Shown: in pieces, positions 2,690 to 32,000 of the stretch
Numbering within the stretch: the stretch's first letter is position 1
Layout: every line of letters starts with the position of its first letter
Origin: Candidatus Methanoperedens sp.
GTDB lineage: Archaea; Halobacteriota; Methanosarcinia; Methanosarcinales; Methanoperedenaceae
Assembly (NCBI GenBank): GCA_041494705.1
Contig: JBGQBI010000004.1
Span: 90,001 to 122,000, forward strand
Direction: 5' to 3'
Length of the DNA: 32,000 bases
The notes under the pieces: generated by a model
Seen by the model: only the letters and a program-made list of their open reading frames with translations
The model's database searches: none
What the model was told of the DNA's origin: nothing
Program-made: the position numbers and the translations under genes

Positions 2690-2734
2690 TCAAAGAATTT
2701 GCTGTTTTTCCAATTTCTTTAAAAAAAGTTTAAA
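2690..2734. terminator. Bidirectional oligo-T terminator region between convergent gatE and aglB
   Basis: 45 bp AT-rich gap. A T5 run at 2705-2709 follows the gatE stop on the plus strand. An A7 run at 2721-2727 (T7 on the minus strand) lies 7 nt downstream of the aglB stop. Archaeal terminators are typically oligo-T tracts. Not experimentally supported. Confidence 0.35.
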
Positions 2735-5293
2735 TTAAACAAGATCGAGGGTTAAGGCATTGCCATCAAGAACATCTTTTTCCTTTACATCGATTTGCTT
2801 TGAAACATTGCCCACAGTCAGAGTATAAGGACCTGTTGGTTTTGTATCGAACTGCGTCTCTCCGGGGATTTGGCCGAGCGTCGAATATGGAACCGTAAAG
2901 GCATAGGTTCCGTTCGAGGAGGTTGTCTGCGAATATGATACGGTTCTTCCGATATTTGTTTTGATGGTATTTGTCAGCGTGATTGTGGTATTTTGCGGTG
3001 AATGCCCTGTGATTTTTGCGCCTTTTACATATTCGAAAACCTTAACAAGCCCTGAATTCTCTACTGGAATATGCCCTCCGTATAATGTATTATAAATATA
3101 TTTGAACTGCTGTTCCATATATCCTCCTTCTGTGTTTGGATTTGGAGGAGACTCGTGCACCAGTCTATAGTACTTTAAATTATTACCGTCAAAAATATGG
3201 AGCTTTGCCTCCATATTATCGTAATACTTCGAGGAAGGTACAACCTGAGGTCCCTGGCTCGTCTGGATCTGCACGCGATATCCATAGTCTTCATTCCAGG
3301 TTCCAAATACATCCATTATGCCATATGCCATGTAACCATCGCTCACAATATAGCGTGCTCCTGGTTTCCCGTTGACTCCTAAGGCATTAAGTACCCCATT
3401 CGCTTCGTCCTCGCTTTTGGCAGTTAAAAATGAAGATGCACCGGGTGCATGCTGGCTACCGCCACCGATGCCGCCCTGGAACGGATTTGCATTAGGTATC
3501 CTGTGCGCCCAGTATGTGATTGTGTGACCGTAGTCCCACCAACTCATTACGCCGTATGCAGTTTCAGGATATGGGTAGGTGCCGTTGGGTTTTTTGTAAA
3601 TAGCGTAATAGTCTAACCCAGGGTCAGGCGTGTTATAGCGCATCCAACTAAGAGTTTCAAACCACTCGTTGTATCCCCCGCCTGAGGGCTCACTTCCCCC
3701 TAACCATTGTGCTGATAGCGTTGTCGTTTTATAAGGAGAAGCATCAGGTGGCAGAAATAGAGTCACTGCTATCACAAGAATTAAAGAAAGAACATGCTGA
3801 ATCCTTGTTTTTTTCACACATTCAATAATATCAAACGAGTCAAATTTCTTCCAGTCACCAAAATCCAGAATTTTGGAACCTAAGAAGCCTATTAGTATCG
3901 CAACATTTACTGCATAGTAATATGCAAATCGGTTCTGGGCGAGCGTTATGGCAAGAACAAAAACGCTCCAGACAACTATTAATGTGTATTCGGCGTTCGA
4001 TTTCCTGATTATATAATAACAGAGAGCAAGAATTGCAATGTAAGCAAGATAATAATTATATCCGAAATTTCCCATTATCATCTCAGGAGTGATCGGCGTA
4101 GCTTCTGATATTGTCAGGTTCCCGCCTGTATTTCCGTTGAATATATAACCCAAAGCGCCTATTGTAGCGTCATAAAGGTCTGGTATTAATATTTTTATAG
4201 CTATCAGCCCAATCAATATAGAGCCGAATATAAACAATAAATAATGCAATCCACGGTATTCCCGTTTATTCATTTCCCTGGAAACAAGACTTAGAAATGC
4301 AAAAATCAGCGCTGCCCCACCTGTTACTGTCAGATGCAAAAGAGAATAATGCCCGGAATCAAATCCATTACTTAGCTCAACATACGGTATTACCATTATC
4401 ATCGCCACTACATAGGCTATTATACCCACAATGCCCAGATATTCCGTAGATTTACCTCTAAAATGATCTATAACATACTGGATAACAACAAAAATGGCAA
4501 AAACAACAGCAAAGAAAACGCCATCAGTCCAATTAAGAAGATATGCTCCGAAGGAGATACCTGCAAAAAGAGAATATATTAAAGGGGTTTTTAATGCCGC
4601 CCAATCCTTATTCAGCCAGTGGTCAAAAGTAATGTTTTCCGCTTTTTTAATGGCTATAACGAAAAACATCATCGTTAGGGTTAACCAGAAAACCTCAGCT
4701 ACGTGGTTATCCGTGAATCCAAGCACTGACCTTGAAAGCCACTGGCCAGGCAATATTGCTATTAAGAAAGCTCCAAGCAGTCCTGATTTCTCATCCAGCA
4801 ATTCTTTGCCTATAAAGTAAACAGGGAATACTACCAGAGCCCCCAGAACTGCAGGATAGAAGGCACCCACTGCATCAATAGTGGACTGAGTCGGCATACC
4901 ACCATTAGTAATTAAGCCTGCAATCAGGGCAAAAAAGGCATTTATCTGGTCAAATAAAGGACCCCAATGCAAATAATATCCATATGGATAATTAGTGAAC
5001 GCATCATAGAAAATACGGTGAGGAAAAAAGTGAATGGTGTTTTCCACGAGCCTCATATGGAAGACAGAGTCGTCTGCTGCAAAAGCTACAAAATTATCAC
5101 GGAATACATTTTTGATGGGGATTATCCCCCTGATATAGAATGAAAGCAGGAATATTGCAAAGAGTATAATATACGAAAGAGATTTTACTGTGAAAAACCT
5201 GTCAGTTTTACTCAGTTTTGTCTCTTCTTTCCTTTTCTCAGGTTTTTCCTTATACTTTTTATTCGCCTTTACTTTTGCCAAAGTACACCTCAT
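2735..5293 (-). CDS. aglB: Archaeal oligosaccharyltransferase AglB (STT3/PglB family)
   Basis: 852 aa. The N-terminal half is polytopic membrane. The first-loop acidic motif is ...AADDSVFHMRLVEN..., the second is ...GFTDNHVAEVFW..., and the diagnostic WWDYG motif is present (...YGVMSWWDYGHTITYW...). The C-terminal portion is soluble and beta-rich. An alternative TTG start at codon 5, preceded by GGTG, is possible. Confidence 0.93.
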   Translation of the reverse strand: MRCTLAKVKANKKYKEKPEKRKEETKLSKTDRFFTVKSLSYIILFAIFLLSFYIRGIIPIKNVFRDNFVAFAADDSVFHMRLVENTIHFFPHRIFYDAFTNYPYGYYLHWGPLFDQINAFFALIAGLITNGGMPTQSTIDAVGAFYPAVLGALVVFPVYFIGKELLDEKSGLLGAFLIAILPGQWLSRSVLGFTDNHVAEVFWLTLTMMFFVIAIKKAENITFDHWLNKDWAALKTPLIYSLFAGISFGAYLLNWTDGVFFAVVFAIFVVIQYVIDHFRGKSTEYLGIVGIIAYVVAMIMVIPYVELSNGFDSGHYSLLHLTVTGGAALIFAFLSLVSREMNKREYRGLHYLLFIFGSILIGLIAIKILIPDLYDATIGALGYIFNGNTGGNLTISEATPITPEMIMGNFGYNYYLAYIAILALCYYIIRKSNAEYTLIVVWSVFVLAITLAQNRFAYYYAVNVAILIGFLGSKILDFGDWKKFDSFDIIECVKKTRIQHVLSLILVIAVTLFLPPDASPYKTTTLSAQWLGGSEPSGGGYNEWFETLSWMRYNTPDPGLDYYAIYKKPNGTYPYPETAYGVMSWWDYGHTITYWAHRIPNANPFQGGIGGGSQHAPGASSFLTAKSEDEANGVLNALGVNGKPGARYIVSDGYMAYGIMDVFGTWNEDYGYRVQIQTSQGPQVVPSSKYYDNMEAKLHIFDGNNLKYYRLVHESPPNPNTEGGYMEQQFKYIYNTLYGGHIPVENSGLVKVFEYVKGAKITGHSPQNTTITLTNTIKTNIGRTVSYSQTTSSNGTYAFTVPYSTLGQIPGETQFDTKPTGPYTLTVGNVSKQIDVKEKDVLDGNALTLDLV

Positions 5294-9124: not shown

Positions 9125-9201
9125 TTTTCCTTCTTTGATTCTCAAAGATATTAGGTCTTTCCTAAGTAAAGCATAAGTAATACTAAATCAAAAGAGCATC
9201 G
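9125..9201. promoter_or_regulatory. Short divergent promoter spacer between radical SAM paralog 1 (-) and the GT-C gene (+)
   Basis: 77 bp AT-rich spacer (…aagtaaagcataagtaatactaaatc…) between divergent start codons. The promoter assignment rests on position and AT-richness only. Confidence 0.3.
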
Positions 9202-17625: not shown

Positions 17626-18735
17626 TTATGTAGAATTTATTAAATCAGAAATATACCTAATTTGTTCTTCTTTTAAATCAGGATGCATGGGCAGAGATAA
17701 AATCTCACTGGAATATTTCTCAGTAAAAGGGAGAGAAATGTTTTTAAATTCTCCAAATGCTTCCTGCCGATGGATAGGCACTGGATAATGTATAAGCGTA
17801 TTAATTCCTGCATTAACAAGCTTCTTCTGCATCTCATCTCTATCGCTGCATCTTATTACATATAAATGATAGACATGCTTTGAATATTCTTTTTCCACTG
17901 GTTTCACCACATTTTCCAATAATCTATCGTAAATCCTTGCATTCCTGCGCCGTTTTTGATTCCATTCATCCAGTTTTTTTAGTTTGACATCCAGAATCGC
18001 AGCTTGTAGTTCATCCAGCCGGCTGTTAAAGCCCTTAATCAGGCTATGATATTGTTTCTTCATGCCGTAATTCCTGAGCATCCGCAACTTTTCTTCCAGT
18101 TCTTTGTTGTTTGTTACCGCCATACCTCCGTCTCCATATCCACCAAGATTCTTGGTTGGGTAGAAGCTGAAGCATCCTACATCACCAAGAGCCCCCACTT
18201 TTTTCCCTTTATATTCCGCTCCATGCGCCTGACATGCATCTTCAATCACCTTTAACTCATATTTTTGCGCCATCTCGGTTATAGGCTGCATGTCAGCAGG
18301 CTGACCGTATAAATGAACCGGAAGTATCGCTTTTGTCTTTTCGGTTATGTTTTCTTCAATTTTATTAATATCTATGGTATAGGATTCAGGGTCTATATCC
18401 ACAAAGACCGGTTTTGCGCCTGTATACGTAATGGCAAGAACCGTAGGTGTAGCCGTGTTTGATACGGTGATAACCTCATCGCCCTTCCCTATTCCACATG
18501 CAAGCAGTGAAAGATGAATGGCATCTGTTCCGTTTGCCACGCCTATACCATGTTTTGCCTGGCAGTAGGTCGCAAAGTTTTTCTCAAATAATTCTACTTT
18601 CTTTCCTAAAATATACCAGCCACTGTCTAAAACTTCTTTTATCACGCTATCGACATCATCTTTTATAGAATGATACTGGCCGCTCAGGTCTGTGAAGGGT
18701 ATTTTATTACCAATATTCTTTTCTGTGTTTTTCAT
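17626..18735 (-). CDS. DegT/DnrJ/EryC1/StrS-family PLP-dependent NDP-sugar aminotransferase
   Basis: 369 aa. Family strings are ...[17 protein letters not shown]..., ...[22 protein letters not shown]... and ...DACQAHGA.... The PLP-lysine region is ...[17 protein letters not shown].... The gene overlaps the upstream SDR gene by 29 nt. Confidence 0.92.
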
Positions 18736-19711
18736 AAAACTCTACTGTCTTTTTAATTCCTTCTTCAAGTCCTATCTTCGGTTCCCAGCCAAGCGTCTTT
18801 TTTATTTTTCCATAATCTGCAGTATAACTACCTATTTCGATCTTTTTCCTCTCATCAGGAAAAGGAACAAGCTCAAAACTTCCTTTCTGTGCAATATTTA
18901 TTATCAACCTTACAAGATCTTTTAAATTTGAAGGCTCGCCGCCCAGATTAAATACTTCCCCCTCAGAACGTTTGCTATCGCCAGCAAGCAATAATGCCCG
19001 GACAACGTCATCCACATAATGGAAATCCCTTATCTGAAGCCCATCGCCAAATATCTTTATCACTTCATTATCCATTGCCTGGCGTATAAACCAGTTCAGG
19101 AACCCCTGCCTGCTGTGTTTCATCAGATGCCTTGGTCCATAGGTATTTGTAAGCCGCAGCGACGTTGCCCTTATCCCATACGTCCTATAGTATAATAGAT
19201 GATACTGTTCAGCAGCATGTTTCGATATGCCGTTTGTATCTACAGGGGTTATAGGGTGCTTTTCATCAACAGGAGTATATACGATTTTTCCGTATTGTGA
19301 ACGTGTGCCTGAAAAGATTATCTTCGCCCCGCAGTTGTATTTTCTGCAAGCTTCAAGAAGCGTCAATGTTCCAAGACCATTAATTTCAAGGTCTTCAAAT
19401 GGATTTTCCATGCTTTCCACATGGCTTAATTGCGCCGCTAAATTGAAGATATAGTCCTTATCTTTTACCACCTGGTTTACAGCGGCATTATCTCTCATAT
19501 CTGCAAAGTTGAGTTTGATTTTATCTTCTATCCCTTTGATGTTGAAAAGATTCCCGCCTCCCTTAGGGTAAAGTGCGTCTATAATCGTAACATCCGAGCC
19601 AAGTTTTATCAGTTCATGGGCAAGATTGCTTCCGATAAACCCAAGTCCGCCTGTTATGAGAACTTTTTTTCCCCTGTAAGTATGATCTAAATTAATGGCT
19701 TCCACCACCAT
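18707..19711 (-). CDS. Extended SDR NDP-sugar epimerase/dehydratase/reductase homolog with an atypical active site (Asn in place of the catalytic Tyr)
   Basis: 334 aa. The cofactor motif is ...[15 protein letters not shown].... The S/T region is ...FSGTRSQYG.... Where YxxxK is expected, the sequence reads ...[13 protein letters not shown]..., which aligns residue-for-residue to ...PSSPYSASKAGGD... of the adjacent RmlB. It overlaps rfbB by 25 nt. Confidence 0.85.
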
Positions 19712-20640
19712 TCATTCTCTACATACCATCTGATTGTTTCACCAAGTGCTGCCTTAAAATCATGTTTCGGCTTCCAGCCGAGTTTTTTTATCTTTGTTAT
19801 ATCTAACGAATAACGCCTGTCATGACCTTTGCGGTCGGGAACAAATTCTATCAAGCTTTCAGGCTTACGCAGTTCCTTCAAAATCATAGTGGTTATATCA
19901 ATATTCGTTATCTCGTTTCCCGAGCCGATATTGTATATCTCTCCTTCTTTGCCTTTATGCATCACTAAATCTATTGCATCGCAATTATCCAGCACATACA
20001 GCCAGTCCCTTACATTTTTACCGTCGCCGTAAAGGGGTAGCTTTTTATTTCTCAGGGCATTTGTTATAAAAAACGGGATTAGTTTCTCAGGGTACTGATA
20101 AGGGCCAAAATTGTTGGAGCTTCTTGTGATTATAACGGGAAGCTGATGCGTAATGAAATAAGAATGCACGAGCATGTCGCCTCCAGCCTTGCTTGCAGAA
20201 TAAGGGCTTGAAGGTTCGAGACGGTCAGTTTCCTTGAATGAACCAGCATCTATGCTGCCGTATACTTCATCCGTAGATATCTGGACATACTTTTCAACAT
20301 CATATTTCCTTGCAGCTTCCAGGAGTCTGTAAGTACCGAGTACATCTGTGGTAACAAAATCCCCAGCATCGATTATCGACCTATCCACATGGGTTTCTGC
20401 TGCAAAATTAACTATAATGTCAACATCTTTGCAAACATTTTCAACCGTCTCTTTATTGCATATATCCCCTTTTATAAAGCTGTATTTTTTATTTTTTTCC
20501 ACATCTTTTAAATTTTGAAGATTCCCCGCATAGGTGAGCTTGTCCAGATTTATGACTTCATACTCCGGGTGTTTTTTCAGGATGCTGAGTATGAAATTAC
20601 TTCCGATAAAACCTGCTCCGCCTGTTATTAATAATTTCAT
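19687..20640 (-). CDS. rfbB: dTDP-glucose 4,6-dehydratase
   Basis: 317 aa. Diagnostic strings are MKLLITGGAGFIGSNF, ...NLDKLTYAGNLQNL..., ...FAAETHVDRSI..., ...ISTDEVYG..., ...SPYSASKAGGDMLV... and ...GDGKNVRDWLYV.... This is the classic RmlB/RfbB signature set. Confidence 0.93.
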   Translation of the reverse strand: MKLLITGGAGFIGSNFILSILKKHPEYEVINLDKLTYAGNLQNLKDVEKNKKYSFIKGDICNKETVENVCKDVDIIVNFAAETHVDRSIIDAGDFVTTDVLGTYRLLEAARKYDVEKYVQISTDEVYGSIDAGSFKETDRLEPSSPYSASKAGGDMLVHSYFITHQLPVIITRSSNNFGPYQYPEKLIPFFITNALRNKKLPLYGDGKNVRDWLYVLDNCDAIDLVMHKGKEGEIYNIGSGNEITNIDITTMILKELRKPESLIEFVPDRKGHDRRYSLDITKIKKLGWKPKHDFKAALGETIRWYVENEWWWKPLI

Positions 20641-20646
20641 GTTTAC

Positions 20647-21723
20647 CTACAATTGTATCTCTGAATTTTCGCCAATAATAAACCTATATCCTTTTGGAAG
20701 GGAATTTTTAGAAACAATACTGGTATACCTTCCGATTAAACTATCCACGATTTTTTCATCAAATTCAATCCGCGTGTCACCGATTATGATTGAAGATTCT
20801 ACCTCTCCTCCAATAATAGTTGTATTGTCTCCGATGGAAGTATAGGGACCTATATAGCCCGGACCAATTTTGCAGTTCTTACCTATTATTACCGGTCCCC
20901 TTACTACAGTCCCATTTTTAATGATGCTATCCTGCCCCAGTTCAATATTACCTATCAGTTTAGCTCCCTCTTCTATTGCTCCTTCTATTTTATGGTTCAT
21001 ATCGCTCAAAATAAGATGGTTGGCATGAAGGATCGCCTCTGCAGTTCCTGTATCATCCCACCAATCTGTTACGATATGGGAAATAACTTTATATTTTTTT
21101 GATAAAATTATGCTGCGAATGGCGTCGGTTATTTCATACTCCCCGCGCCAGGATGGTTTGAGCGTCTCTATGACCTTGAAGATATGCGGGGTAAACATAT
21201 ATACCCCAATCAGTGCCAGATCGCTTTTCGGGACTTTTGGCTTCTCCTCCACATCGGTTACTACCCCTTTATCATCCAGTTGCGCTATGCCGTATTTCTG
21301 CGGGTCAGGAACACGGGAAAGAAGTATTCCAGCCTCAGCGCCCGAGTTTTTAAATTCATTCACGAAATTGACTATTCCGCTTTTTAATATATTATCTCCG
21401 AGATAAACCACAAAAGGTTCCTCGCCCATAAAATCCCTGGCGCAAGAAACAGCATGAGCAATGCCACGCGGTGCATCCTGTTCAATGTATGTGATCCTTG
21501 CATCCCACCGTGAGCCATCGCCTACCGTATTCTTTACTATATTTATGCGCTCCTCGGTATATCCCACGATAATACCGATATCTGTTATGCCCGCCTCAAT
21601 AAGGTCTTCAATGACATAAAATAGCACAGGCTTATTCGCTATAGGGATAAGCTGCTTTGGTCCGGTATGGGTGAGTGGTCGCAGGCGTGTGCCCAGACCG
21701 CCTGCAAGAATTAAGCCTTTCAT
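20647..21723 (-). CDS. rfbA: Glucose-1-phosphate thymidylyltransferase, long form (nucleotidyltransferase domain plus C-terminal left-handed beta-helix)
   Basis: The track ORF starts at a TTG at 21741. I prefer the ATG at 21723 (MKGLILAGGLGTRLRPLTHTGPKQLIPI...), which is preceded by a GAGGA SD 4 nt upstream. A C-terminal hexapeptide-repeat region (...IGKNCKIGPGYIGPYTSIGDNTTIIGGEVESSII...) matches archaeal long-form RmlA-type enzymes. Sugar and nucleotide specificity are inferred from the adjacent rfbB. Confidence 0.88.
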   Translation of the reverse strand: MKGLILAGGLGTRLRPLTHTGPKQLIPIANKPVLFYVIEDLIEAGITDIGIIVGYTEERINIVKNTVGDGSRWDARITYIEQDAPRGIAHAVSCARDFMGEEPFVVYLGDNILKSGIVNFVNEFKNSGAEAGILLSRVPDPQKYGIAQLDDKGVVTDVEEKPKVPKSDLALIGVYMFTPHIFKVIETLKPSWRGEYEITDAIRSIILSKKYKVISHIVTDWWDDTGTAEAILHANHLILSDMNHKIEGAIEEGAKLIGNIELGQDSIIKNGTVVRGPVIIGKNCKIGPGYIGPYTSIGDNTTIIGGEVESSIIIGDTRIEFDEKIVDSLIGRYTSIVSKNSLPKGYRFIIGENSEIQL

Positions 21724-21761
21724 GAAATCCTCATTTTTCAATCATCAATATCGCTTCCATA

Positions 21762-21867: not shown

Positions 21868-23115
21868 TTAGACATATTGGTATTGATTTAACTTCTCCTT
21901 ATTTCTACGTATTACCTCTTCATACACCTTTATCGTACCCTCTACCATACTCTCTACACTGAACTTCTCCACAATTTTTTTTCGTGCAGCCTTGCCGAGA
22001 CGCTGTGCAAGTTCCTTATCTGTGAGTACTTTTCGAACAGCCTCTGCCAGCTTTTTAATATCGCCTGTAGGGACAAGGAGACCATCAACACCGTCTTCAA
22101 TTACCGTGGGAACGCTGCCAATATTTGATACCACAACTGGTTTTTCACATGCCATCGCTTCAAGGATGGTGAGGTCGTAACCGTTCTGGCGGATGGTGGG
22201 ATTCACGAAAAGGTCGCAGGCGTTGAAGTAATCAGGAAGCGATTCGAAAGAGAGCATGCCAGTAAAGATGACATTGTTTTCAAGGTTTAGTTTTTTGACC
22301 CGTTTTCTTAATTCGGGAGCATAGCTTCCATCACCGACGATCATTAATTTTGTGTCAGGAAAGATTTTCAAAATTTCAGGAAAAGCATAAATGATATTTT
22401 GTATCCCTTTGTCTTTTTCAAGACGTGCGATAGAAAGGAGAAGATTTTCCCCCGGAGCTATGTTATGTTTCTGACGAATTATTTCATTTTTACGTGGTGA
22501 AAAGGGTGTAGGATCGATACCGTTAAATACTTTAAATATTTTGGCTTCATTGATAAAAAATATTTTTTTAATTATCACAGCCTGCTCATTGCTTGTGGAT
22601 ATAACCGCATCAGACAGACGTATGAGCGGCAATCCATATATAAAATATTGATAAATATGATCTAAAATAAACCCTATCGATTTAATATAATGCACAGGAG
22701 CTTTGATAGACATAAGACGCAATCTTGTTTTGATCTCATCGTAAGTAGTACCATGCATGGATACGATCGAAGGCAAAGAACATTTTTTATTTAGTCCTTT
22801 TTTCAAAAAATAATATCCGCCTGCACTCTGGCTGTGGACGATGTCAAAAGGTTTCAATGAATGCAGCTCCATGAACTTGTCAACACTTTTTTCCCACCAC
22901 CCGCCTCTAAAATAACTCCCGGTGATCGTCGTTGGCAAATAATGAATTTTCACGCCATTTACTTCTTCATAAATTTTGCCTTTCGGATGCTTTGTAGTGA
23001 TAACTACCACTGTATGACCTTTTTCTGCTATTTTTTCTGAAAGCATTAGAATATGGTCTTGCATCCCTCCCTTACAATGAGCTGGCATCACGCGGGTGAA
23101 CATTGCAATATTCAT
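21868..23115 (-). CDS. Family 4 (GT-B) glycosyltransferase
   Basis: 415 aa. The N-terminus is ...GGMQDHILMLSEKIAEKGH.... The C-terminal signature is ...LFVNPTIRQNGYDLTILEAMACEKPVVVSNIGS.... Its start overlaps the upstream methyltransferase stop by 4 nt. Confidence 0.85.
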   Translation of the reverse strand: MNIAMFTRVMPAHCKGGMQDHILMLSEKIAEKGHTVVVITTKHPKGKIYEEVNGVKIHYLPTTITGSYFRGGWWEKSVDKFMELHSLKPFDIVHSQSAGGYYFLKKGLNKKCSLPSIVSMHGTTYDEIKTRLRLMSIKAPVHYIKSIGFILDHIYQYFIYGLPLIRLSDAVISTSNEQAVIIKKIFFINEAKIFKVFNGIDPTPFSPRKNEIIRQKHNIAPGENLLLSIARLEKDKGIQNIIYAFPEILKIFPDTKLMIVGDGSYAPELRKRVKKLNLENNVIFTGMLSFESLPDYFNACDLFVNPTIRQNGYDLTILEAMACEKPVVVSNIGSVPTVIEDGVDGLLVPTGDIKKLAEAVRKVLTDKELAQRLGKAARKKIVEKFSVESMVEGTIKVYEEVIRRNKEKLNQYQYV

Positions 23116-23855
23116 TTTTTTACACCTTTTATGACTATTTCGATTCCGAATGTTTTTGAGATTTTGTTGTTTGTTAATTTATCCAGCGGCATAATGAACA
23201 TCAAATCGATCAATTTCCCAAAAGGGACTAATAATCGCGATAATCTACAGATCGAATGCGCGGGATTGAAACCAGAATGTTCAATTCCATAAAGATTATT
23301 TAATTTAAATGTTTGTATCAATTCAAGTTTTTTAAATGATTTTTCATAACCATAAACATATCTTTTTCCAACTATTTTCTTGTACAGTGTATGTGGAAAA
23401 CAATACCAATTAGGCACTGCAACTATTACCTGGCCTTTTTTTCTCGTTAAACGTACCATTTCGTTTACAATTGCATTATAATTGATAAAGTGTTCAATCA
23501 CACCGTCGTTATAAACTACATCGAACGCATCATTTTTAAAAGGCATTCTAAAGGCATCTCCCTGAACAAGATATAGATTTTCTATACCCCTGCATTGCAT
23601 TCCTTTTCTGGTAAGTTTCAAGGCATTTCGAGAGATATCCATTCCAATTATCATTGAATTTTTATATTCTCTTGCAAGAGCTATACAATACCTACCGGTG
23701 CCTGACCCGGCCTCAATAATTTTTTTATCTTTGGATGTAATCCATTGGGATATACAGGGAAATGCTTTTTTTGCGAACGAATCGAAAGCAGTTTCTTTGA
23801 CAGCATTTTTTTCCATCAATCCCCATTGTGCATCCCAAATGTCATCTACTTTCAT
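23112..23855 (-). CDS. Class I SAM-dependent methyltransferase
   Basis: 247 aa. Motif I is ...KIIEAGSGTGRYCIALA.... Later motifs are ...FDVVYNDGVIEHF... and ...KKGQVIVAVPN.... Confidence 0.85.
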   Translation of the reverse strand: MKVDDIWDAQWGLMEKNAVKETAFDSFAKKAFPCISQWITSKDKKIIEAGSGTGRYCIALAREYKNSMIIGMDISRNALKLTRKGMQCRGIENLYLVQGDAFRMPFKNDAFDVVYNDGVIEHFINYNAIVNEMVRLTRKKGQVIVAVPNWYCFPHTLYKKIVGKRYVYGYEKSFKKLELIQTFKLNNLYGIEHSGFNPAHSICRLSRLLVPFGKLIDLMFIMPLDKLTNNKISKTFGIEIVIKGVKK

Positions 23856-23861
23856 ATTCCT

Positions 23862-24403
23862 CTAATCAATGTTTTTTATTATTTTGGCAGGCGTTCCGGC
23901 TGCTACGGAATATTCCGGGATGTCCATATTCACCAGGCTATTAGCACCAATAACAGAACCTGTTTTGATTGTTACACCCTTCAAAATCGTACAACCTTTT
24001 CCAATCCATACATTACTTTCTATCACAACAGATGCAGTTTTTAGTTCCTGTTCCCGTATCAACTTTCCTTTTTTGAAATTATGGTCATGGTCTCTAATAG
24101 AGGTATATTCTCCTATCAAGACATCATCACCAATATTAATAGAATTGTAAGAAATAACAATTACCCCATATGCCAGATGCACATTGTTTCCAATGTTTAT
24201 CCGACCTTTATTTCCTCCTACAAAAGAGTTCCTGCCAAACCAGACATTGTCACCACAATAAATTTTCGTGTCCCCCCCCATCCATTATAACCTTCAAAAA
24301 ATACATTTTTTCCAAGGCGTGTAAAATGTCTTGAATAATAAATGTTCATTAGATTATTACGCATATAATTATATATATTTTTAATATACAATTTAAGCCC
24401 CAT
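23862..24403 (-). pseudogene. Hexapeptide-repeat (LbH, WcaF/WbbJ/LacA-like) acetyltransferase interrupted by a frameshift in a G8 homopolymer
   Basis: Two ORFs in different frames overlap at the tract. The 5' part (24218-24403) is MGLKLYIKNIYNYMRNNLMNIYYSRHFTRLGKNVFFEGYNGWGG.... The 3' part (23862-24281) is ...DTKIYCGDNVWFGRNSF..INIGNNVHL..INIGDDVLIGEYTSIRDHDHNF..NVWIGKGCTILKGVTIKTGSVIGANSLV..AGTPAKII. Adding 1 G (or removing 2) gives one continuous protein of about 180 aa with a normal family N-terminus. The 5' ATG abuts the stop of the upstream radical SAM gene (TAAATG). Confidence 0.75.
24272..24279 (-). repeat. G8 homopolymer (C8 on the plus strand) at the acetyltransferase frameshift site
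   Basis: Read directly from the sequence: ...cgtg tCCCCCCCCa tcc.... It is the longest G/C run I noticed in a locally very AT-rich region. Confidence 0.95.
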
Positions 24404-25912
24404 TTATTTTAATAAATTGATAATCCTGTCTTTAATAAATTTTTCTTCTTCCTGGTACTTAAAAAAATTAAATTTCCATCTCAATTTAGGTGAAATAGAA
24501 TAAATCATACCTAAATTCGATTCAGTCAATTTTTTTATGGTTTTTAAATCATAAACCAGATACTTCGAATTTTCAGATAAGAAACGTATGAACTCGGGAT
24601 CGTCAACCCAGGGAAGATCATCAAGACTATTATATCCGGTATTTTTATTGGCATTAGCCCATTCACGAAGGGATTCAGGCTCATATAATCCTAATTTTTT
24701 ACATTGTTCATACAATTCTCCTCCCGGATAGGGCCTGAATATAAAATTATCATAATGTCTTGCTGTAGGACATATCTTGTTTATTTGCCTCATAATTATA
24801 ATATTTGTTTTCATTTCTTCTATAGTTTTCCCCGGTAGTGCTATCATCCATGAATATACAGGAATGATACCTGACTTGGCGCATACTTTTGCAGAATTTA
24901 ATAAGTCTTCTGTAGTTATATCTTTTTTAAGGCTTTTCAAAACAGCGTTAGAACCGGATTCTGCGCCCATAGTTGCAAATTCAAATCCTACGCTCTTTAA
25001 TTCTTTAGCGAAATCCACAGTCACATAGTTTTCTTTAAAATAATTAGCTCGGATGTTAGTTCCCCATTTAACATCGATTTTTCTCTCCTTCATTTTTTTA
25101 ATTATTTCTTCCGCTCTTTTTTTATTTACAAAGAAATTTTCATCCAGAGGCCGGATCATATCCAGCTTATATTTATCAACAATAAATTCAAACTCATCAA
25201 GGAACCTGTCCGCATCCTGAGCCCTCCAACCGGATTTGGTAACTTTATTTATACAGAAAGTACACCTGTACGGGCACCCGCGGGAAGACAACATGACCAG
25301 TTTTCTAATCTTTTTAGTATCTGAGAATATTATAGGAACAGGTCTTTCCAAATAAAATCTTAAATCTAAAAGATCATGATTGAGAAAGGGAAGTTTATTT
25401 ATGTCTAAGAAATCCCTTGGTTGAGTTACAAATCCATCATAAGCAATTCCTTTAATCTCTTCAAACTTGGAATTTTTCTTTTCAATTTCATTGATTAACT
25501 CTAAAGCTGATGCCTCTCCTTCTCCATAAACCACAAAATCAACCAGAGGGTCATTTGATGTTTGCGCAGGGAATAAAGATGGATGAACCCCACCCCAAAT
25601 GATCGGAATATCCGGATACTTGCTCTTAATAAATTGGCTAATCGACAGCGCGTTTGAAACTTGTGCCGTCATAACCGATATGCCAACGCAGATAGCGTTA
25701 CCAAGTTCTTTTTCAAGTATTTTCAGATAGGAGTCATCGCCTACTTCATGGTACGGCACTACATCTAAAATTTTTACAGAATAACCTTTTTCGTGTAGAT
25801 ACGTCCCAATTGCCAAAACTCCCAACGGTTCTCTAATTCTGACATCCTCTAATCTAGTATAATTTAGATTTTGTCTTGCGATTGCAGGATTAATTAGTAT
25901 TATTTCAGCCAT
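24404..25912 (-). CDS. B12-binding-domain radical SAM protein (class B-like), paralog 2
   Basis: 502 aa. The N-terminus is MAEIILINP...PLGVLAIGTYL..VKILDV..ICVGISVMT..PIIWGGVHPSLFP..DFVVYGEGEASALEL.... The cluster motif is SSRGCPYRCTFC. It is most similar to paralog 4 by eye (shared WGGxHPSL, GEGE, and KxxW-R after the cluster motif). Confidence 0.9.
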   Translation of the reverse strand: MAEIILINPAIARQNLNYTRLEDVRIREPLGVLAIGTYLHEKGYSVKILDVVPYHEVGDDSYLKILEKELGNAICVGISVMTAQVSNALSISQFIKSKYPDIPIIWGGVHPSLFPAQTSNDPLVDFVVYGEGEASALELINEIEKKNSKFEEIKGIAYDGFVTQPRDFLDINKLPFLNHDLLDLRFYLERPVPIIFSDTKKIRKLVMLSSRGCPYRCTFCINKVTKSGWRAQDADRFLDEFEFIVDKYKLDMIRPLDENFFVNKKRAEEIIKKMKERKIDVKWGTNIRANYFKENYVTVDFAKELKSVGFEFATMGAESGSNAVLKSLKKDITTEDLLNSAKVCAKSGIIPVYSWMIALPGKTIEEMKTNIIIMRQINKICPTARHYDNFIFRPYPGGELYEQCKKLGLYEPESLREWANANKNTGYNSLDDLPWVDDPEFIRFLSENSKYLVYDLKTIKKLTESNLGMIYSISPKLRWKFNFFKYQEEEKFIKDRIINLLK

Positions 25913-25916
25913 CGTT

Positions 25917-27332
25917 TCACCCTATCATTTTTCTATAGGACGACCACACAATTTCAAATAAATGCATTTTTTTTAATGCACCTATTAAACTATATTTTAA
26001 TAATTCTGATATATTTTTAGTATAAAGGGAATAATAAATAAAATAGCAGTTATAATAATAATTGATTTGGGACGTTGTTAGTTGTGGGTAATTCAATATC
26101 GATTTTTCATAATATGTATCGATTTTATTTTTTTTATCAAGCACTACCCAGTCATTCTCATAACAGAGTTCTCCCAATTTGGTTCCGCGGAATGGATAGA
26201 AAACGGAGACTTGTATAGCATCAGGTTTTATTTGGGAATTGAGAACTATTGTTTGTTTGATATCCGCTGTAGTTTCGAATGGCAATCCAACCATATTAAA
26301 AGAATACGTTTCTAAATTATACTTCTTCGCAAGCTTAAAGGCCTCAGTTATTTGGTTGTTCGTATTATGCCTATTTAAAACTTTTGAGCGTATTTCTTCA
26401 CTTCCGGATTCTATTCCTATCTGCAATCTTTTGCAACCTGCATCAGCGATTTTAGATATTAAATCTTCTTGGCAAGTTTCAGGGCGGGCATTAGCATAAA
26501 AAGGCAAACCAATTTCTTTTTTATATTTTTCGGCAAATTCGGTTATCCATTTTTTGTTTAAAAGCATGGTATCGTCATAAAACCCGATGGAGTTGAACTT
26601 GTAAATTTTCTGAAGTTCCTTAATTTCCTCTATCACCCTGTCAACCTTACGAAATCTGACATATCTATCCTTCACAGGATACAAGTTTCTCACATGCTCA
26701 TTTATACAATATGTGCAGTTAAATGGACACCCCCGACTGCACATGATTCCGATCTTTTTAAGTGCGCCAGTCTCACTATTGCCGCTAAACTCATGACCCA
26801 CGATGGTCTCTTCATCAAAAATCGACCTATCCGGAAAAGGTAAACTATCAATGTCTGGAGGGGAATCAAGCTCATTTCTAATAATTTTATCGTTATCTTT
26901 AACCCAAATCCCTTTTATTTCATCAATTTTTTTGTTGTTTTCCATTAAACGTACAAGATTTGTAAGAGTTTCTTCCGCCTCGCCCCTTGCCACATAATCG
27001 ATGCTGGATAAATTGATAATCTCTTCAGGTGCAAGAGTTGCATAAGGTCCACCAACGATTATTTTTGCATTAGACTCTTGTTTAATTATCTTGCTCAGTT
27101 TCTCCACATATTTAGCCCCGAATTCAGTTATAGAAAAACCAACAAGGTCCGGATTAAATTTTTTAAGTTCTATTAAGACTTTCTCAATGTAGTTTTTTTT
27201 ATCTCTTTTCTTTAGATGAATCAAATTTACTTTATGCCCATCTTCTTTTAGAACCGCTGATAGGCTGGCAACCCCTAGCTGGAAATCCCCCTTTTCACTT
27301 TCAAAGTTTGGGTAAATAAACTGGATTCTCAT
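25917..27332 (-). CDS. B12-binding-domain radical SAM protein (class B-like), paralog 3
   Basis: 471 aa. The N-terminus is MRIQFIYPN...QLGVASLSAVL..VNLIHL..PDLVGFSITE..IIVGGPYATLAPE..DYVARGEAEETL.... The cluster motif is CSRGCPFNCTYC. Its start overlaps the upstream GT4 stop (ATGA), and its stop is 4 nt from the start of paralog 2. Confidence 0.9.
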   Translation of the reverse strand: MRIQFIYPNFESEKGDFQLGVASLSAVLKEDGHKVNLIHLKKRDKKNYIEKVLIELKKFNPDLVGFSITEFGAKYVEKLSKIIKQESNAKIIVGGPYATLAPEEIINLSSIDYVARGEAEETLTNLVRLMENNKKIDEIKGIWVKDNDKIIRNELDSPPDIDSLPFPDRSIFDEETIVGHEFSGNSETGALKKIGIMCSRGCPFNCTYCINEHVRNLYPVKDRYVRFRKVDRVIEEIKELQKIYKFNSIGFYDDTMLLNKKWITEFAEKYKKEIGLPFYANARPETCQEDLISKIADAGCKRLQIGIESGSEEIRSKVLNRHNTNNQITEAFKLAKKYNLETYSFNMVGLPFETTADIKQTIVLNSQIKPDAIQVSVFYPFRGTKLGELCYENDWVVLDKKNKIDTYYEKSILNYPQLTTSQINYYYNCYFIYYSLYTKNISELLKYSLIGALKKMHLFEIVWSSYRKMIG

Positions 27333-28468
27333 TTTATTCTAACATTGGTTTCATAGATTTTAATGTATCTATCTGCTATTGACTCCCAATCGTACTTTTT
27401 CTCTACCAGAAGCCTTCCACATCGCTCCATATTTTCTTTTATCTCATTGTTCTCAAATAACCATACTATCTTTTCGGCCAGTTCATTGATGTTTTCTGGT
27501 TTAAAAAGTATTCCATTCTCACCATTACGAATTATTTCTGGAACCCCATCCACATCTGCCGCAATGATCGCTTTTCCAGCAGCCATTGCTTCAAGATTTG
27601 TGATCCCGAAGGGTTCTATTCTTGAAGGAAGAACGAAGAACTCACAGCCATTATATAATTTAATCACTTCCTTTCGCTCAACAAAACCAAGCATTTTTAC
27701 CCGTTCTTTCAGACCGAGTTCGTTTACCAAATGGGCACATATTTGCCATTCTTCACCTGTGCCTGCAATTATCAAATCAAGTTCCAGTTTTTTATCTGCG
27801 ACTTGTTTAAAGGCTTTTATCAAAATATCAAAGCCTTTCTTATGAACAAAACGTCCGATTGAAAATATGTATGGTCTTGCTTGAAGATATTTTTCTTTTA
27901 ATTCAAACTCCTGTAAATCAATACCATTAGGTATTGGCTGAGATTTATTTTGGATTTCCGGGGCAATTTGATTTGCATCGTTTAACAGACTTCTTGAACA
28001 TCCAGTTATAAAGTCAGCGCTATTTAATAAATTTTTCAATACCCCTTTGCATATTTTTGACTCATAAGGAAACTGCTGAACATCATTTCCATGCACACTT
28101 ACTACTAACGGGTAATTTAACAACTTTTTTGACAGTAGAGTATATGACCCATTCGCATATATAAAATGAGCATTTACTATTTCTGGCTTGACTCTTTTTA
28201 GCAACCAGAGTAATTTTATGTTTGCAATTATACCTAGAGTCAAAAAACCAAATATTGATTTAATTCGTAGTGTAGGTAAAATAAAATCCAATCTATATAT
28301 CTCTATACCGTCAATTAAATCTCGCGAAGCCAGATTGCGAGGTGTTTTCGCAGCAATTACTGTTACTTTGTGACCTCTATTTGTAAATTGTTTTGCTAGA
28401 TTGTAGACCACCATTTCTACCCCACCTATATTAGGCAAGTATAGATCAGTAATTAATATTATTTTCAT
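27329..28468 (-). CDS. Family 4 (GT-B) glycosyltransferase; first gene of the long minus-strand operon
   Basis: 379 aa. The N-terminus is ...LYLPNIGGVEMVVYNLAKQFTNRGH.... The C-terminal signature is ...FFVLPSRIEPFGITNLEAMAAGKAIIAADVDG.... A GAGGAA SD (plus 28476-28481) lies about 8 nt upstream of the ATG. Confidence 0.87.
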   Translation of the reverse strand: MKIILITDLYLPNIGGVEMVVYNLAKQFTNRGHKVTVIAAKTPRNLASRDLIDGIEIYRLDFILPTLRIKSIFGFLTLGIIANIKLLWLLKRVKPEIVNAHFIYANGSYTLLSKKLLNYPLVVSVHGNDVQQFPYESKICKGVLKNLLNSADFITGCSRSLLNDANQIAPEIQNKSQPIPNGIDLQEFELKEKYLQARPYIFSIGRFVHKKGFDILIKAFKQVADKKLELDLIIAGTGEEWQICAHLVNELGLKERVKMLGFVERKEVIKLYNGCEFFVLPSRIEPFGITNLEAMAAGKAIIAADVDGVPEIIRNGENGILFKPENINELAEKIVWLFENNEIKENMERCGRLLVEKKYDWESIADRYIKIYETNVRIK

Positions 28469-28652
28469 GGGATATTTCCTCTTTCTTCAGCGTAGTGGTC
28501 GTATTTGCAATTTCGACATTAATATTATGATTGATAGGAATCCTATTCCAGACTTTTTAATTGTATTATCCGCAAGTAAAATATTTATTATGCATTTTAA
28601 CATATAATATGTGAGATAGGTATAATAACATAGGGGTAATTTTAGTTCCGCA
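28469..28652. promoter_or_regulatory. Divergent promoter region for the minus-strand operon and the plus-strand membrane protein gene
   Basis: 184 bp very AT-rich spacer with several TATA-like elements (…acattaatattatg…, …aaatatttattatgcattttaacatataatatg…). The assignment rests on position and composition. Confidence 0.3.
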
Positions 28653-30353
28653 GTGATATATTTGATAAATTTATTAATGTACTGGTTTTATATCAGCATA
28701 ATCATTTTAATGTCATTTATTCCTGGCTTTGCCATTGCCAGCCGTTTCAAAAATCTAAGCGTTTTAGAGAAATTAAGCGTCAGTTTTGGTTTTTCTTTTG
28801 TAATTATTGTATTACTTGTACCTTTTTTTGCATTTAAACTTAATTTTATAGCACAACTCATTTTTATTTACATAATGATTTTTTCAGTATTGTATTTACT
28901 AAAAAAGAGATCAGAGTTAAAATTTGAAATAAACTCAAGGATTATAATGTCGGTACTAATTATCGGTCTGATCTTAAACTTCTTTCTCCAGACCCTCTGG
29001 GAATACCCTGTCACTGGCGGAGATTGGATTAGCCACACATTATTTATCCCATATGATTTTAATTCAGGTAATTGGACACTACCACATGACCGTACACCTT
29101 TTTTTAATCTTCTTATTTTTTCATATCATCATTTATTGGGTACATCTCTCTTCCAATACTGGATTTCACAAATCATCAGCGTGGTTGCAAACAGCATTTT
29201 TATTCTTCCAGCCTTTTTGATAGCGAAAAATGTATTTAATGATAAGGTAGCTAAAATATCAGCTGCTTTCATGGTTATAACGCCATGGCTTGTCTGGCAG
29301 TCAATTTATACATGGCCAAAAAACTTAGCGATGTATTTCATCCTACTTATGGTGTATTTTATGTTTTTCAAAAAGGAAAACAAACCTCTAAGTTATGGAC
29401 TTTCCGGTTTATTTGGTGCATTAGCATTTTTAACGCATAACTACACTATATTCTATATTCTCACAGCATTGCTGGCCTTTATTTATATCAAAAAAATTTA
29501 CCAACACCCTTTAATTATTCTTCAGGAATTGTTTAAAGAAAAATTTATTTATTTTTTTATTGTGATAGTAGTAGCAATAGTGCCGTATATTGTGTGGATG
29601 TATGCCTCTTATGGAGAAATAGTTAAAAGTCGTCTTCTTTATTATCCCTTTTCAGTTAACGGTTACGTGCAAGCGTCTTACAGTGATCCTCAGGAAATAT
29701 TCAATACTTTTTTCAAAACACCGATAAGTTCAATAATAGATATTCGGATTTCAAATGCGATTGTTACATTATTGCCTGTTGTGCTCCCGATTAACCCCAT
29801 TGCAACACATTTCCCAACATATTATCCAGCTTTATATTATATGCAAGATTATCCGGGTGGGCTTTCTTTTTTGATGTACATACTAGTAGTTATTTGGTTC
29901 TCAAGATACCTGTTTAGAAAAACAAATACGAATGCAGTTTTGGTAATTCTTGTTATAGTACCTTTTCTGGTAACCCTCTTCATAGCCGGATGGAAAGACT
30001 GGGGATTACTCACTTATGCACTGGGTCCCACAATTCCAATTTTAATAATGCTTGGAACTAATGAATTGTATGGATTTAAGACTTCATGGATTAGAACTGC
30101 ATATGCGTATTTAATGTTTATAGTATGCCTGATGGAAGGTTTGATTTTCGGAGTGCTTATCAATGATCTTTATTTGGCAACCGGTGGAATAAAGGATGTG
30201 ATAGATGTTGGCGCTCGCATTCCCGGCTTTCAAATATCTTCTTTCATTTCGGCTCACTTTTTATTGAAGGGAATTGAAGATTTTTCAACGAATGCGGCGA
30301 TATCCATTTTGATAATTATTGTTACAATATATTATCTGTCAAAAAAAAGCTAA
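28653..30353 (+). CDS. Polytopic membrane protein, GT-C-like (candidate lipid-linked-sugar glycosyltransferase or glycan polymerase)
   Basis: 566 aa with at least 12 predicted TM helices. The loop ...YPVTGGDWISH..., then ...RTPFFNLL...LGTS... and ...LAFLTHNYT... parallel the order of the DE / PPxxxL / FGxS / LTKxxA elements in the GT-C protein at 9202-11016. The family call is pattern-based only. The start (GTG 28653 versus ATG at codon 9) is uncertain. Confidence 0.55.
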   Translation: MIYLINLLMYWFYISIIILMSFIPGFAIASRFKNLSVLEKLSVSFGFSFVIIVLLVPFFAFKLNFIAQLIFIYIMIFSVLYLLKKRSELKFEINSRIIMSVLIIGLILNFFLQTLWEYPVTGGDWISHTLFIPYDFNSGNWTLPHDRTPFFNLLIFSYHHLLGTSLFQYWISQIISVVANSIFILPAFLIAKNVFNDKVAKISAAFMVITPWLVWQSIYTWPKNLAMYFILLMVYFMFFKKENKPLSYGLSGLFGALAFLTHNYTIFYILTALLAFIYIKKIYQHPLIILQELFKEKFIYFFIVIVVAIVPYIVWMYASYGEIVKSRLLYYPFSVNGYVQASYSDPQEIFNTFFKTPISSIIDIRISNAIVTLLPVVLPINPIATHFPTYYPALYYMQDYPGGLSFLMYILVVIWFSRYLFRKTNTNAVLVILVIVPFLVTLFIAGWKDWGLLTYALGPTIPILIMLGTNELYGFKTSWIRTAYAYLMFIVCLMEGLIFGVLINDLYLATGGIKDVIDVGARIPGFQISSFISAHFLLKGIEDFSTNAAISILIIIVTIYYLSKKS

Positions 30354-31786
30354 CCCTTTATCCAGAAGTCCATCAATTTTGATTCCAGCATAAATTTAAA
30401 AAAAAGATTTTTCACTCTGAATCTTGCTATGGGCTTATAAATATCAGAGAGGATTCCTTTCGAAGAATAAACCATCCCTCTACTTCCATGCAGGAAAAGT
30501 GAGGAATAAAATAAATACTTCAACATTTTCATCCTCTGGTCGGATATCCATGGTATATTACCATAGTTGGACCCACTCCATCCTTCCAGGGTGGATGGAA
30601 CTCTATATCCCTCATTTATCGCCTTACCGAAAATTTCTGTACCAGGATATGGTACGTAGTTGCAAAGCGGTGATGAGATTGCATTTGGTGAACCATCTAT
30701 TAATTCAAAAACTAATTCTACTGTTTTTTTCAGGTCTTCTTCAGTTTCTGTGGGAAAACCTGCCATGAAATTATACTGGCAGACAATATTGAATTTTTTG
30801 AGTTTTTTCGCCACCTCTCTGACCTGGGAAATTGTAATATTTTTTCTTACTAGATTCAAAATTCTCTCAGATCCAGATTCAATTCCAAAATGAAGTTTTC
30901 TGCATCCACTCTTTTCTATCAAACTTAGAAATTCATCATTCATCTTAATAGCTATTTTTACATTTATTCCCTGACTTTCCCATGTAAGATCCCAACCTTC
31001 TTTGATGATACCTTTTGCGATCTCTTCCACTCTTTTTAAATCTATGAAAAAATCATCGTCGACTATATATAAATTCTTAACACCATATTTTTCCACCCCT
31101 CTTTTTATCATCGCTAAAGTTTTTTCAGCAGATAAGGCCCGCCACTTTCTCTTGTTATATGCAGGATTGTAGCAATAGGCACAGTTATTCGGGCATCCTC
31201 TTGAAGTTTGTATGTTTAGTGTCGGTCTACCTTCAAATAATGGTAAATACTTTTTTACCTCAACCAAATGATAAGGTAGGTCTGGAAGTGTATTCAAATC
31301 AACAAAAGGACGTGGATTGTTGTTCTTGATTACACCGTTTGACTTAAACCAAACTCCTTCTATTCCATCTAATGCGATACCTTTATCCAGATGTTTTACA
31401 AGTTCATAAAAAGTGATCTCACCTTCGCCTGCAACCACAATATCAACGAATTCGTTTTCGAGAGTTTCAGCAGGCAAAAGACTTGGGTGAATACCTCCCC
31501 AAACAACCGGTACTTTCGATTCTTTTTTAACTATTTTGGATGCCTCTAAGCCATGTTTAATCTGCACTCCCGTCATTGACGTCACACCGACACAAATTAC
31601 ATCCTTCTTCAACTCTTCTTTCAGTGTGTTTTTCCATTCCAAATCAGTTCTTTGGTCAATTATTCTTACTTTGTATTCTTTTTCAACTAACGTTGATACA
31701 CATAACAAAGCAAGCGGTAGAGATGGTGATGTTCTCACTTCGTCCCAATCTCCTACTATCGGCTGAATTAGAATAACATTTCTCAT
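30350..31786 (-). CDS. B12-binding-domain radical SAM protein (class B-like), paralog 4
   Basis: 478 aa. The N-terminus is MRNVILIQP...PSLPLALLCVSTL..VRIIDQ..ICVGVTSMT..PVVWGGIHPSLLP..DIVVAGEGEITFYEL.... The cluster motif is TSRGCPNNCAYC. A GAGGA SD lies 5 nt upstream of the ATG. Its TAG stop overlaps the TAA stop of the convergent membrane protein gene. Confidence 0.9.
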   Translation of the reverse strand: MRNVILIQPIVGDWDEVRTSPSLPLALLCVSTLVEKEYKVRIIDQRTDLEWKNTLKEELKKDVICVGVTSMTGVQIKHGLEASKIVKKESKVPVVWGGIHPSLLPAETLENEFVDIVVAGEGEITFYELVKHLDKGIALDGIEGVWFKSNGVIKNNNPRPFVDLNTLPDLPYHLVEVKKYLPLFEGRPTLNIQTSRGCPNNCAYCYNPAYNKRKWRALSAEKTLAMIKRGVEKYGVKNLYIVDDDFFIDLKRVEEIAKGIIKEGWDLTWESQGINVKIAIKMNDEFLSLIEKSGCRKLHFGIESGSERILNLVRKNITISQVREVAKKLKKFNIVCQYNFMAGFPTETEEDLKKTVELVFELIDGSPNAISSPLCNYVPYPGTEIFGKAINEGYRVPSTLEGWSGSNYGNIPWISDQRMKMLKYLFYSSLFLHGSRGMVYSSKGILSDIYKPIARFRVKNLFFKFMLESKLMDFWIKG

Positions 31787-31948
31787 TTGTGTCCTCTATG
31801 CTCAATAAATAGAGTATATCGATATATAATTTTCCGGTAGTTAGTTATGTTTTGGTAACCGCTATTTCTGCATGCATTGCGAAAAATTTATTACCTGCAA
31901 ACTGCCACTAGTGCTACAAGCTTGGGAAAGATCAAATTTCAAGAAAAG

Positions 31949-32000
31949 ATGCGAAAAAAAATCGCATTAAAGGATTTGAATATGAAAAAAACAATTGAAT
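31949..32000 (+). CDS. Possible 5' end of an unidentified gene running off the window
   Basis: In-frame ATGs at 31949 and 31982 (MRKKIALKDLNMKKTIE...). The second is preceded by AAGGA 7 nt upstream. The fragment is too short to identify or to confirm as coding. Confidence 0.2.
   Translation, partial: MRKKIALKDLNMKKTIE

Follow-up and report, generated by a model that had tools for sequence, protein, structure and literature searches.

Phase variation of surface glycans is a paradigm drawn from bacterial pathogens and is without demonstration in archaea; the literature that was searched for phase variation at simple sequence repeats in archaea yielded no case. The best-known examples come from Campylobacter jejuni, Neisseria and Haemophilus. 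In their poly-G/C contingency loci a G tract within the 5' part of a surface-glycan decoration gene toggles the reading frame by one G, in genomes that carry many long tracts whose length is variable both between and within strains (PMC6321876, PMC5084427). A phase-variable enzyme of this kind is NeuO, the polysialic acid O-acetyltransferase of the E. coli K1 prophage CUS-3, a left-handed beta-helix protein whose gene has a 5' frame-toggling repeat in the form of a heptanucleotide VNTR with many copy-number alleles (PMC3046976, PMC13001214). A simpler relation between a homopolymer and a surface-related gene is found in Listeria monocytogenes, where a one-base change at or beside the coding 5' poly(A) tract of inlA truncates an otherwise intact gene in a way that is revertible in principle (PMC2831843).

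The gene described here has features of each of these systems. It lies in a genome of Candidatus Methanoperedens sp. (2.06 Mb in 6 contigs, 44% GC, with an archaeal SSU rRNA and a completeness of 99.5%), within a stretch of 32,000 nucleotides of contig JBGQBI010000004.1 that was analysed as a whole and is called the window below. The original prediction, made from the letters of the window, was that a hexapeptide acetyltransferase gene in an archaeal glycosylation cluster is switched off by a run of eight G, possibly as a phase-variable switch of glycan acetylation. The cluster is indeed of the kind proposed. In addition to AglB and the genes of a sugar-nucleotide branch (Table 1), the window holds a Wzx-like flippase, 4 GT4s, 2 PMT-like GT-C proteins, 3 methyltransferases and 4 B12-binding radical SAM genes, and the SSU rRNA of the genome is archaeal. 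As at the Campylobacter, Neisseria and Haemophilus loci, a 5' intragenic G tract lies in a surface-glycan decoration gene and one G toggles the frame; as with NeuO, the product is predicted to be a left-handed beta-helix and the context is that of a surface glycan; and as with inlA, a one-base change at or beside a coding homopolymer truncates an otherwise intact surface-related gene and would be revertible in principle. We think it probable that the deletion of one base at the G run or next to it is genuine, happened very recently and is fixed in every assembly available, and that it inactivates or truncates an accessory acyltransferase acting on glycans. The best description of the allele is that of a young and ordinary loss-of-function mutation in a dispensable gene of glycan decoration, as opposed to an evolved contingency switch.

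Table 1. Position of the split acyltransferase gene and of its neighbours in the window.
Feature	Position	Strand	Remark
AglB/STT3 oligosaccharyltransferase	2735..5293	-	identifies an archaeal locus for N-glycosylation
Sugar-nucleotide branch: NTP-transferase (RmlA-like), 4,6-dehydratase (RmlB-like), SDR, DegT aminotransferase	17626..21741	-	
SAM methyltransferase gene	23112..23855	-	same operon; 6 nt past the acyltransferase stop
3' fragment ORF, 139 aa	23862..24281	-	almost all of the left-handed beta-helix, with the invariant Asp and His
5' fragment ORF, 61 aa	24218..24403	-	ATG abuts the upstream stop (TAAATG)
Interval bound to hold the one-base deficit, TGGGGGGGGACACG	24267..24280	-	14 nt, against 15 in in-frame orthologues
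G8 homopolymer (C8 on the plus strand)	24272..24279	-	1 of only 2 G/C8 runs in the 2.06-Mb genome
B12-binding radical SAM gene, upstream	24404..25912	-	translationally abuts the acyltransferase start

Two further observations concern the surroundings of the gene. The four B12-binding radical SAM paralogues of this one AglB locus are all on the minus strand (7622-9145, 24404-25912, 25917-27332 and 30350-31786), two of them in tandem immediately upstream of the acyltransferase, an arrangement that hints at unusual (C-?)methylation of the glycan sugars or at some other radical chemistry on them. The part of the window from 23000 to 32000 has a GC content of 30-36%, against 44% in the genome. With this composition, and with no orthologue of the acyltransferase in 48 other species of the genus, it has the look of an accessory segment that was acquired horizontally or turns over fast.

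On the minus strand the DNA at the break reads ...GAA GGT TAT AAT GGA TGG GGG GGG ACA CGA AAA..., with T at 24280 and A at 24271 on either side of the G run. Homology to orthologues follows the upstream frame as far as ...FFEGYNGWGG and the downstream frame from TKIYCGDNVWFG; because the frame of homology switches between ...GWGG and TK..., the lesion must lie inside 24267-24280, and the split of the hexapeptide gene and its exact place are thereby supported directly. A random indel in the 543-nt gene would fall within this 14-nt interval with a chance of ~2.6%. The homology of the 61-aa reading frame with intact orthologues covers its first 44 codons (24272-24403), which correspond to their N-terminal helix and first coil, and its last 17 codons are an out-of-frame tail. 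The 61-aa and 139-aa frames are thus the two parts of one gene, which was intact until very recently. Several details of the original prediction held up at this point: the frame changes between the two ORFs at the G8 tract, the 5' fragment starts right after the upstream stop (TAAATG), and the addition of one G gives ...WGGDTKIYCGDNVWFG... and a single protein of 180 aa. The tract, which is in frame as G9 (or G6) and out of frame as G8, stands at nt 125 of 542 and so within the 5' quarter of the gene. The upstream ATG at 24403 is likely to be the true start, because the N-terminal piece is conserved at the protein level as far as L006, a metagenome contig considered below. The ATG that opens the 139-aa frame is formed by the Gly-Trp codons GGA TGG, and has a weak AAGGT 8 nt upstream, to be compared with the anti-Shine-Dalgarno sequence ...GGAUCACCUCCU.

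The larger fragment carries most of what identifies the enzyme. PF00132 (Hexapep) matches the 139-aa fragment with an E of 5e-13 and 48.5 bits against a cut-off of 27, and the 61-aa 5' ORF searched alone gave no family match. The NCBIfam matches (WbbJ, LacA and WcaF as the best, and NeuD/PglB) are partial and sub-threshold, all of them far under the equivalog cut-offs, and a phmmer search of PDB sequences matched VCA0836, LacA, SACOL2570, QdtC, Maa and NeuO (3jqy). The AlphaFold (AF2) model of P0005, an orthologue with 70% identity, has a pLDDT of 96 and consists of a helix at residues 2-34 followed by a left-handed beta-helix, with the WGG motif (residues 52-54 of P0005) predicted inside the first coil; the top Foldseek matches of this model are AntD, VCA0836, NeuO, Maa and LacA, with a probability of 1.00. 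The second His of a DHDH motif, located in the 3' fragment, aligns with the His of GHP in LacA, the catalytic His115. Across 50 homologues there is no variation at Asp115 and His118 (P0005 numbering), two residues of the loop that follows coil 4. From these matches and the model, the split gene would encode a left-handed beta-helix (hexapeptide-repeat) acyltransferase of the LacA/Maa/WbbJ/AntD branch. The best structural matches are AntD, the dTDP-4-amino-4,6-dideoxyglucose N-acyltransferase of Bacillus cereus (PDB 3vbi), and the O-acetyltransferases LacA and Maa (E 3e-10, TM 0.6-0.7), although the sequence identity is just 25-30%. For the predicted sugar acyltransferase, AntD-like N-acylation of an amino-deoxy sugar is as plausible as O-acetylation, because genes of the RmlA-like, RmlB-like, SDR and DegT aminotransferase types stand in the same operon; these are the likely source of an amino-deoxy sugar, and the neighbouring RmlA, RmlB and DegT genes would supply an AntD-type substrate.

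Homopolymers are the chief site of indel errors on long-read platforms, and a sequencing or assembly error would leave a true tract of G9 (or a missing base that is present in the cell) and an intact gene. The lack of decay in the gene would fit such an error, as would the fact that the assemblies sharing the allele may stem from one project (runs SRR35969287 and SRR35969293). The public assemblies speak against it. The exact 139-aa product was found on 8 contigs from three concordant sources (NCBI, JGI/IMG and Logan), one of them 2,065,243 bp long, each contig being a consensus sequence, and all of the public contigs that span the junction (8/8) have the same OFF allele with G8. The upstream gene was found on the same 8 contigs, and the downstream gene on these and on one short contig from SRR35969287, whose end falls short of the tract. 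In run SRR35969293, a 32.7-kb contig that Logan assembled from the raw reads matches the window at 100% identity along 6420 bp, G8 included, and such agreement implies that the reads are accurate. An intact version of the protein at >=90% identity was sought among 5.8 billion clustered proteins, and none was found. Furthermore, ORF junctions in the genome are not enriched at long homopolymers (8-10%, compared with 10.8% at random sites), a crude test with a background of ~10% that excludes only a heavy load of homopolymer errors. A consensus error is unlikely because of the agreement among contigs, the identical Logan contig, the lack of an intact version, the junction test and the completeness of 99.5%, and we give the reading with an intact gene only a small probability; the split allele is probably real in the DNA. 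A systematic homopolymer miscall common to the assemblies of one project, or a minority subpopulation with G9, would count against the deletion that we favour. The short contig mentioned above (L093, Logan SRR35969287, 5470 bp), from a sibling run of the same series, carries the downstream genes and stops inside the acyltransferase ~150 nt 3' of the G run, an end that could reflect low coverage or an assembly bubble near the tract.

That the gene was once intact, as originally proposed, is borne out by orthologues that read through the site and by the constraint kept on both pieces of a gene with a single lesion. A protein with 88% identity to the joined 180-aa sequence (P0003) reads through as ...FFEGYNGWGGSTKIFCGDNVWFG..., and the 190-aa P0005 does so as ...FFEGDNGWGGSTKIHCGNNVWFA.... 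Both fragments, when the window is compared pairwise with its relatives, have dN/dS values of 0.07-0.15, which directly supports past purifying selection, and the changes unique to the window lineage are 16 synonymous and 6 non-synonymous, like those of intact lineages. A second lesion was sought in the gene and none was found. The substitution pattern thus points to a very recent break, with purifying selection acting until essentially the present. A long-dead or decaying pseudogene, which was considered separately, is ruled out by the dN/dS values, the single lesion and the 16:6 ratio; were the gene a pseudogene at all, it would be a very young one. A working switch or a recoded gene would show the same complete lack of decay.

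The tract was compared in metagenome contigs (L003-L006 and L010-L012), among which L012, identical to L010, was the only close relative added by a second metagenome scan with P0003 as query. Exact patterns of the tract with 5-11 G matched nothing among the genome and metagenome contigs searched, a set from which records of this genome and of near-identical ones may be missing. Orthologues were also sought in the 48 other species representatives of the genus, and none was found. The in-frame DNA is TGG GGG GGC AGT ACG in L003 and L004 and TGG GGG GGA AGT ACG in L006, so that these relatives have a G7 which passes in frame through TGG GGG GGN and merely encodes Trp-Gly-Gly. A comparison of tract length among relatives had been proposed along with the phase-variation idea, and it yielded this coding-imposed G7 without any expansion, and an interrupted G5AG3 in L005. 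The 33-residue N-terminal helix, with its motif I-x-N-I-[YF]-N-Y-x-R-N-x-L-M, is kept from the window to L006. In L006 itself (869-3883, ENA ERZ27247124, 70% identical) the acyltransferase precedes a 61-aa ORF, one radical SAM gene and a methyltransferase, and this different gene order means that the module was rearranged between lineages.

The locally most similar relative is L005, positions 1933-1985 of a Logan contig from SRR22387830, which reads TGGGGGAGGGAACACG. One base has been inserted at the G run in question (+1; TGGGGGAGGGAAC) and two more 12 codons further downstream (+2), so that 12 codons of the first beta-helix coil are out of frame (WGREHENLLWRQIIWFG), with a hidden frame that still reads NTKIYCGD; the remainder of the gene is still under purifying selection. 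The shift in L005 was mended by a second-site +2 indel and not by reversion of the tract. The same contig bears on the nature of the base lost in the window. Three one-base deletions yield the observed 14 nt, namely G9 to G8 (...WGGDTK), loss of an A from GGG AAC ACG, and loss of the interrupting A from GGGGGAGGG. The proposal that the missing base was necessarily a G was rejected, as the two A losses give the same 14 nt. The hidden frame of L005, ...GGGGNTKIYCGD, has an Asn codon after a run that is already 8 long, and this comparison speaks for a lost A more than for a lost G. Of the four lineages with this stretch preserved, two (the window and L005) carry an indel at precisely the same place, which suggests that the place is a genuine indel hot spot.

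These comparisons bear most directly on slipped-strand phase variation, in which the G8/G9 tract would turn glycan acylation ON and OFF, reversibly and under selection, and would happen to be mostly OFF in the populations that were sequenced. The position of the tract in the 5' quarter of the gene, the restoration of a 180-aa protein by one extra G, the single lesion with persisting purifying selection and the indels at the same spot in two lineages are all what such a switch would produce, and its target would be a surface-glycan modifier, the class of gene that is most often phase-variable in bacteria. The eight spanning contigs are uniformly G8, however, no ON allele is present in the protein collection, and the orthologues have only the G7 that is forced by their Trp-Gly-Gly codons. 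L005 adds two contrary points, in that its shift was mended at a second site instead of by reversion of the tract, and that it favours the loss of an A over that of a G.

The genomic hallmarks of a phasome are absent as well. G/C runs of 5, 6, 7 and 8 number 1200, 207, 22 and 2 in the genome, which is about six- to eleven-fold fewer for each added base with no excess at 8, and dinucleotide shuffles of the window contain G7 as frequently as observed. Nearly all of the 22 G/C7 runs lie inside long intact ORFs. The other G8, at C3:321551-321558 (GGATGGGGGGGGCGGGGATG), has no ORF of more than 71 codons across it. The original prediction had called the G8 conspicuous in DNA of 25-30% GC; the local GC content is in fact 34%, and a tract of this length is not a statistical outlier. 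With two G/C8 runs the genome has no repertoire of long G/C tracts, and the reading frames of MutS (870 aa) and MutL (588 aa) are open, so that both proteins appear intact. This is unlike Campylobacter, Neisseria and Haemophilus, where tracts are many and variable, whereas here there are two G/C8 runs, intact MutS and MutL, a coding-imposed G7 in orthologues and 8 identical assemblies. The contrast with NeuO is similar, since its many heptanucleotide copy-number alleles have as their counterpart here a single G run of one observed length. The uniform OFF state (8/8), the lack of a tract repertoire, the intact MutS and MutL, the G7 of orthologues and the second-site repair in L005 leave the proposed phase-variation switch without support, and we regard it as unlikely. 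The allele is revertible in principle, because a slip from G8 to G9 could restore the frame; an evolved contingency switch is unproven. If true, such a switch of N-glycan acylation, in a methane-oxidising archaeon of the Methanoperedens type, would give archaeal protein glycosylation its first demonstrated simple-repeat contingency locus, and the recurrent indels at this spot in sister lineages would be its evolutionary trace.

Two further readings would leave the strain with an active enzyme in spite of the G8 DNA. A full-length enzyme might be made by recoding, either through -1 ribosomal frameshifting on G GGG GGG or through an RNA polymerase that stutters and adds a G. In the zero frame, G_GGG_GGG is formally an X_XXY_YYZ heptamer, and recoding would account for the otherwise perfect preservation of the gene. 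The contigs L003, L004 and L006 are nevertheless in frame through the site, so that a shift site is not conserved; conserved programmed frameshifting, as a candidate in its own right, is ruled out by these in-frame orthologues. The fold z-score downstream of the tract is -2.35, a value driven by distant hairpins, and a convincing stimulatory structure at the right spacing, 5-9 nt downstream, was not found. At efficient -1 sites the A-site codons are rich in A/U, and the transcriptional slippage known to be productive takes place on A/T runs of >=9; G-rich codons in the A site and runs of G serve both processes poorly. Recoding is therefore the most doubtful of the explanations weighed here, and we consider it very improbable.

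Alternatively, the 139-aa beta-helix fragment might be translated from its own ATG and is predicted, in this reading, to retain acyltransferase activity. The conserved Asp and His and every coil except the first are still present in it, its ATG has the AAGGT 8 nt upstream, and L005 shows purifying selection on a gene in which 12 codons of the first coil are out of frame. The Shine-Dalgarno match is a weak one, however, and the fragment is missing the 33-residue N-terminal helix that is conserved from the window to L006; in trimers of the LacA/Maa type, the N-terminal segments contribute to the acceptor site. An active fragment consequently seems improbable. Its own ATG, the weak AAGGT and the conserved Asp and His are the reasons why the loss of function is presumptive.

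A recent one-base deletion thus continues to be the explanation that we prefer, and it can be stated as a sequence of simple steps. One base would have been lost at, or right beside, the G run that encodes Trp-Gly-Gly in the gene for a cytoplasmic sugar acyltransferase, in the accessory, AT-rich part of the AglB N-glycosylation operon. The position of the lesion is the one predicted by replication slippage or by an indel bias at the homopolymer. The deletion would have left the 44 codons of the N-terminal helix and first coil on one side and the 139 codons of the catalytic beta-helix on the other, so that the full-length enzyme would no longer be made, and the glycan of this strain would most likely be short of one acyl group. 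We infer the loss of activity, the effect on the glycan and the origin by slippage from the position and consequences of the break. The closest parallel is inlA, from which the present case differs in that the homopolymer is a G run, the organism is an archaeon, no reversion has been observed and the lost base may have been beside the run.

The same gene has been damaged in another way in the lineage closest to the window. This lineage is represented by JGI metagenomes 3300029959, 3300027958 and Ga0074199 (L010, L011 and L012, respectively) and is separated from the window by a dS of 0.40. In L010 (503-2544), the 5' 180 nt of the acyltransferase gene, tract included, have been replaced by the gene for a 592-aa DDE transposase, and homology to the window begins only at 24223 in this lineage. 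The transposase junction is identical in L010 and L012, and L011 has the same gene layout and the same start of homology. The transposase truncation, the scar in L005, the absence from 48 species and the tests against a switch together give the pattern of a dispensable and repeatedly lost decoration gene.

For annotation, the consequence is a routine one: the gene calls for a frameshift flag, as a null or truncated allele specific to this strain, and its interest would rise only if reads were to show mixed tract lengths. N-glycans have been proposed to decorate the extracellular cytochrome nanowires of a related Methanoperedens (PMC13748539). Three separate hits, namely the frameshift described here, the IS truncation in L010-L012 and the compensated double shift in L005, suggest a fast turnover of the decoration gene, and such a turnover fits a diversifying pressure on archaeal surface glycans.
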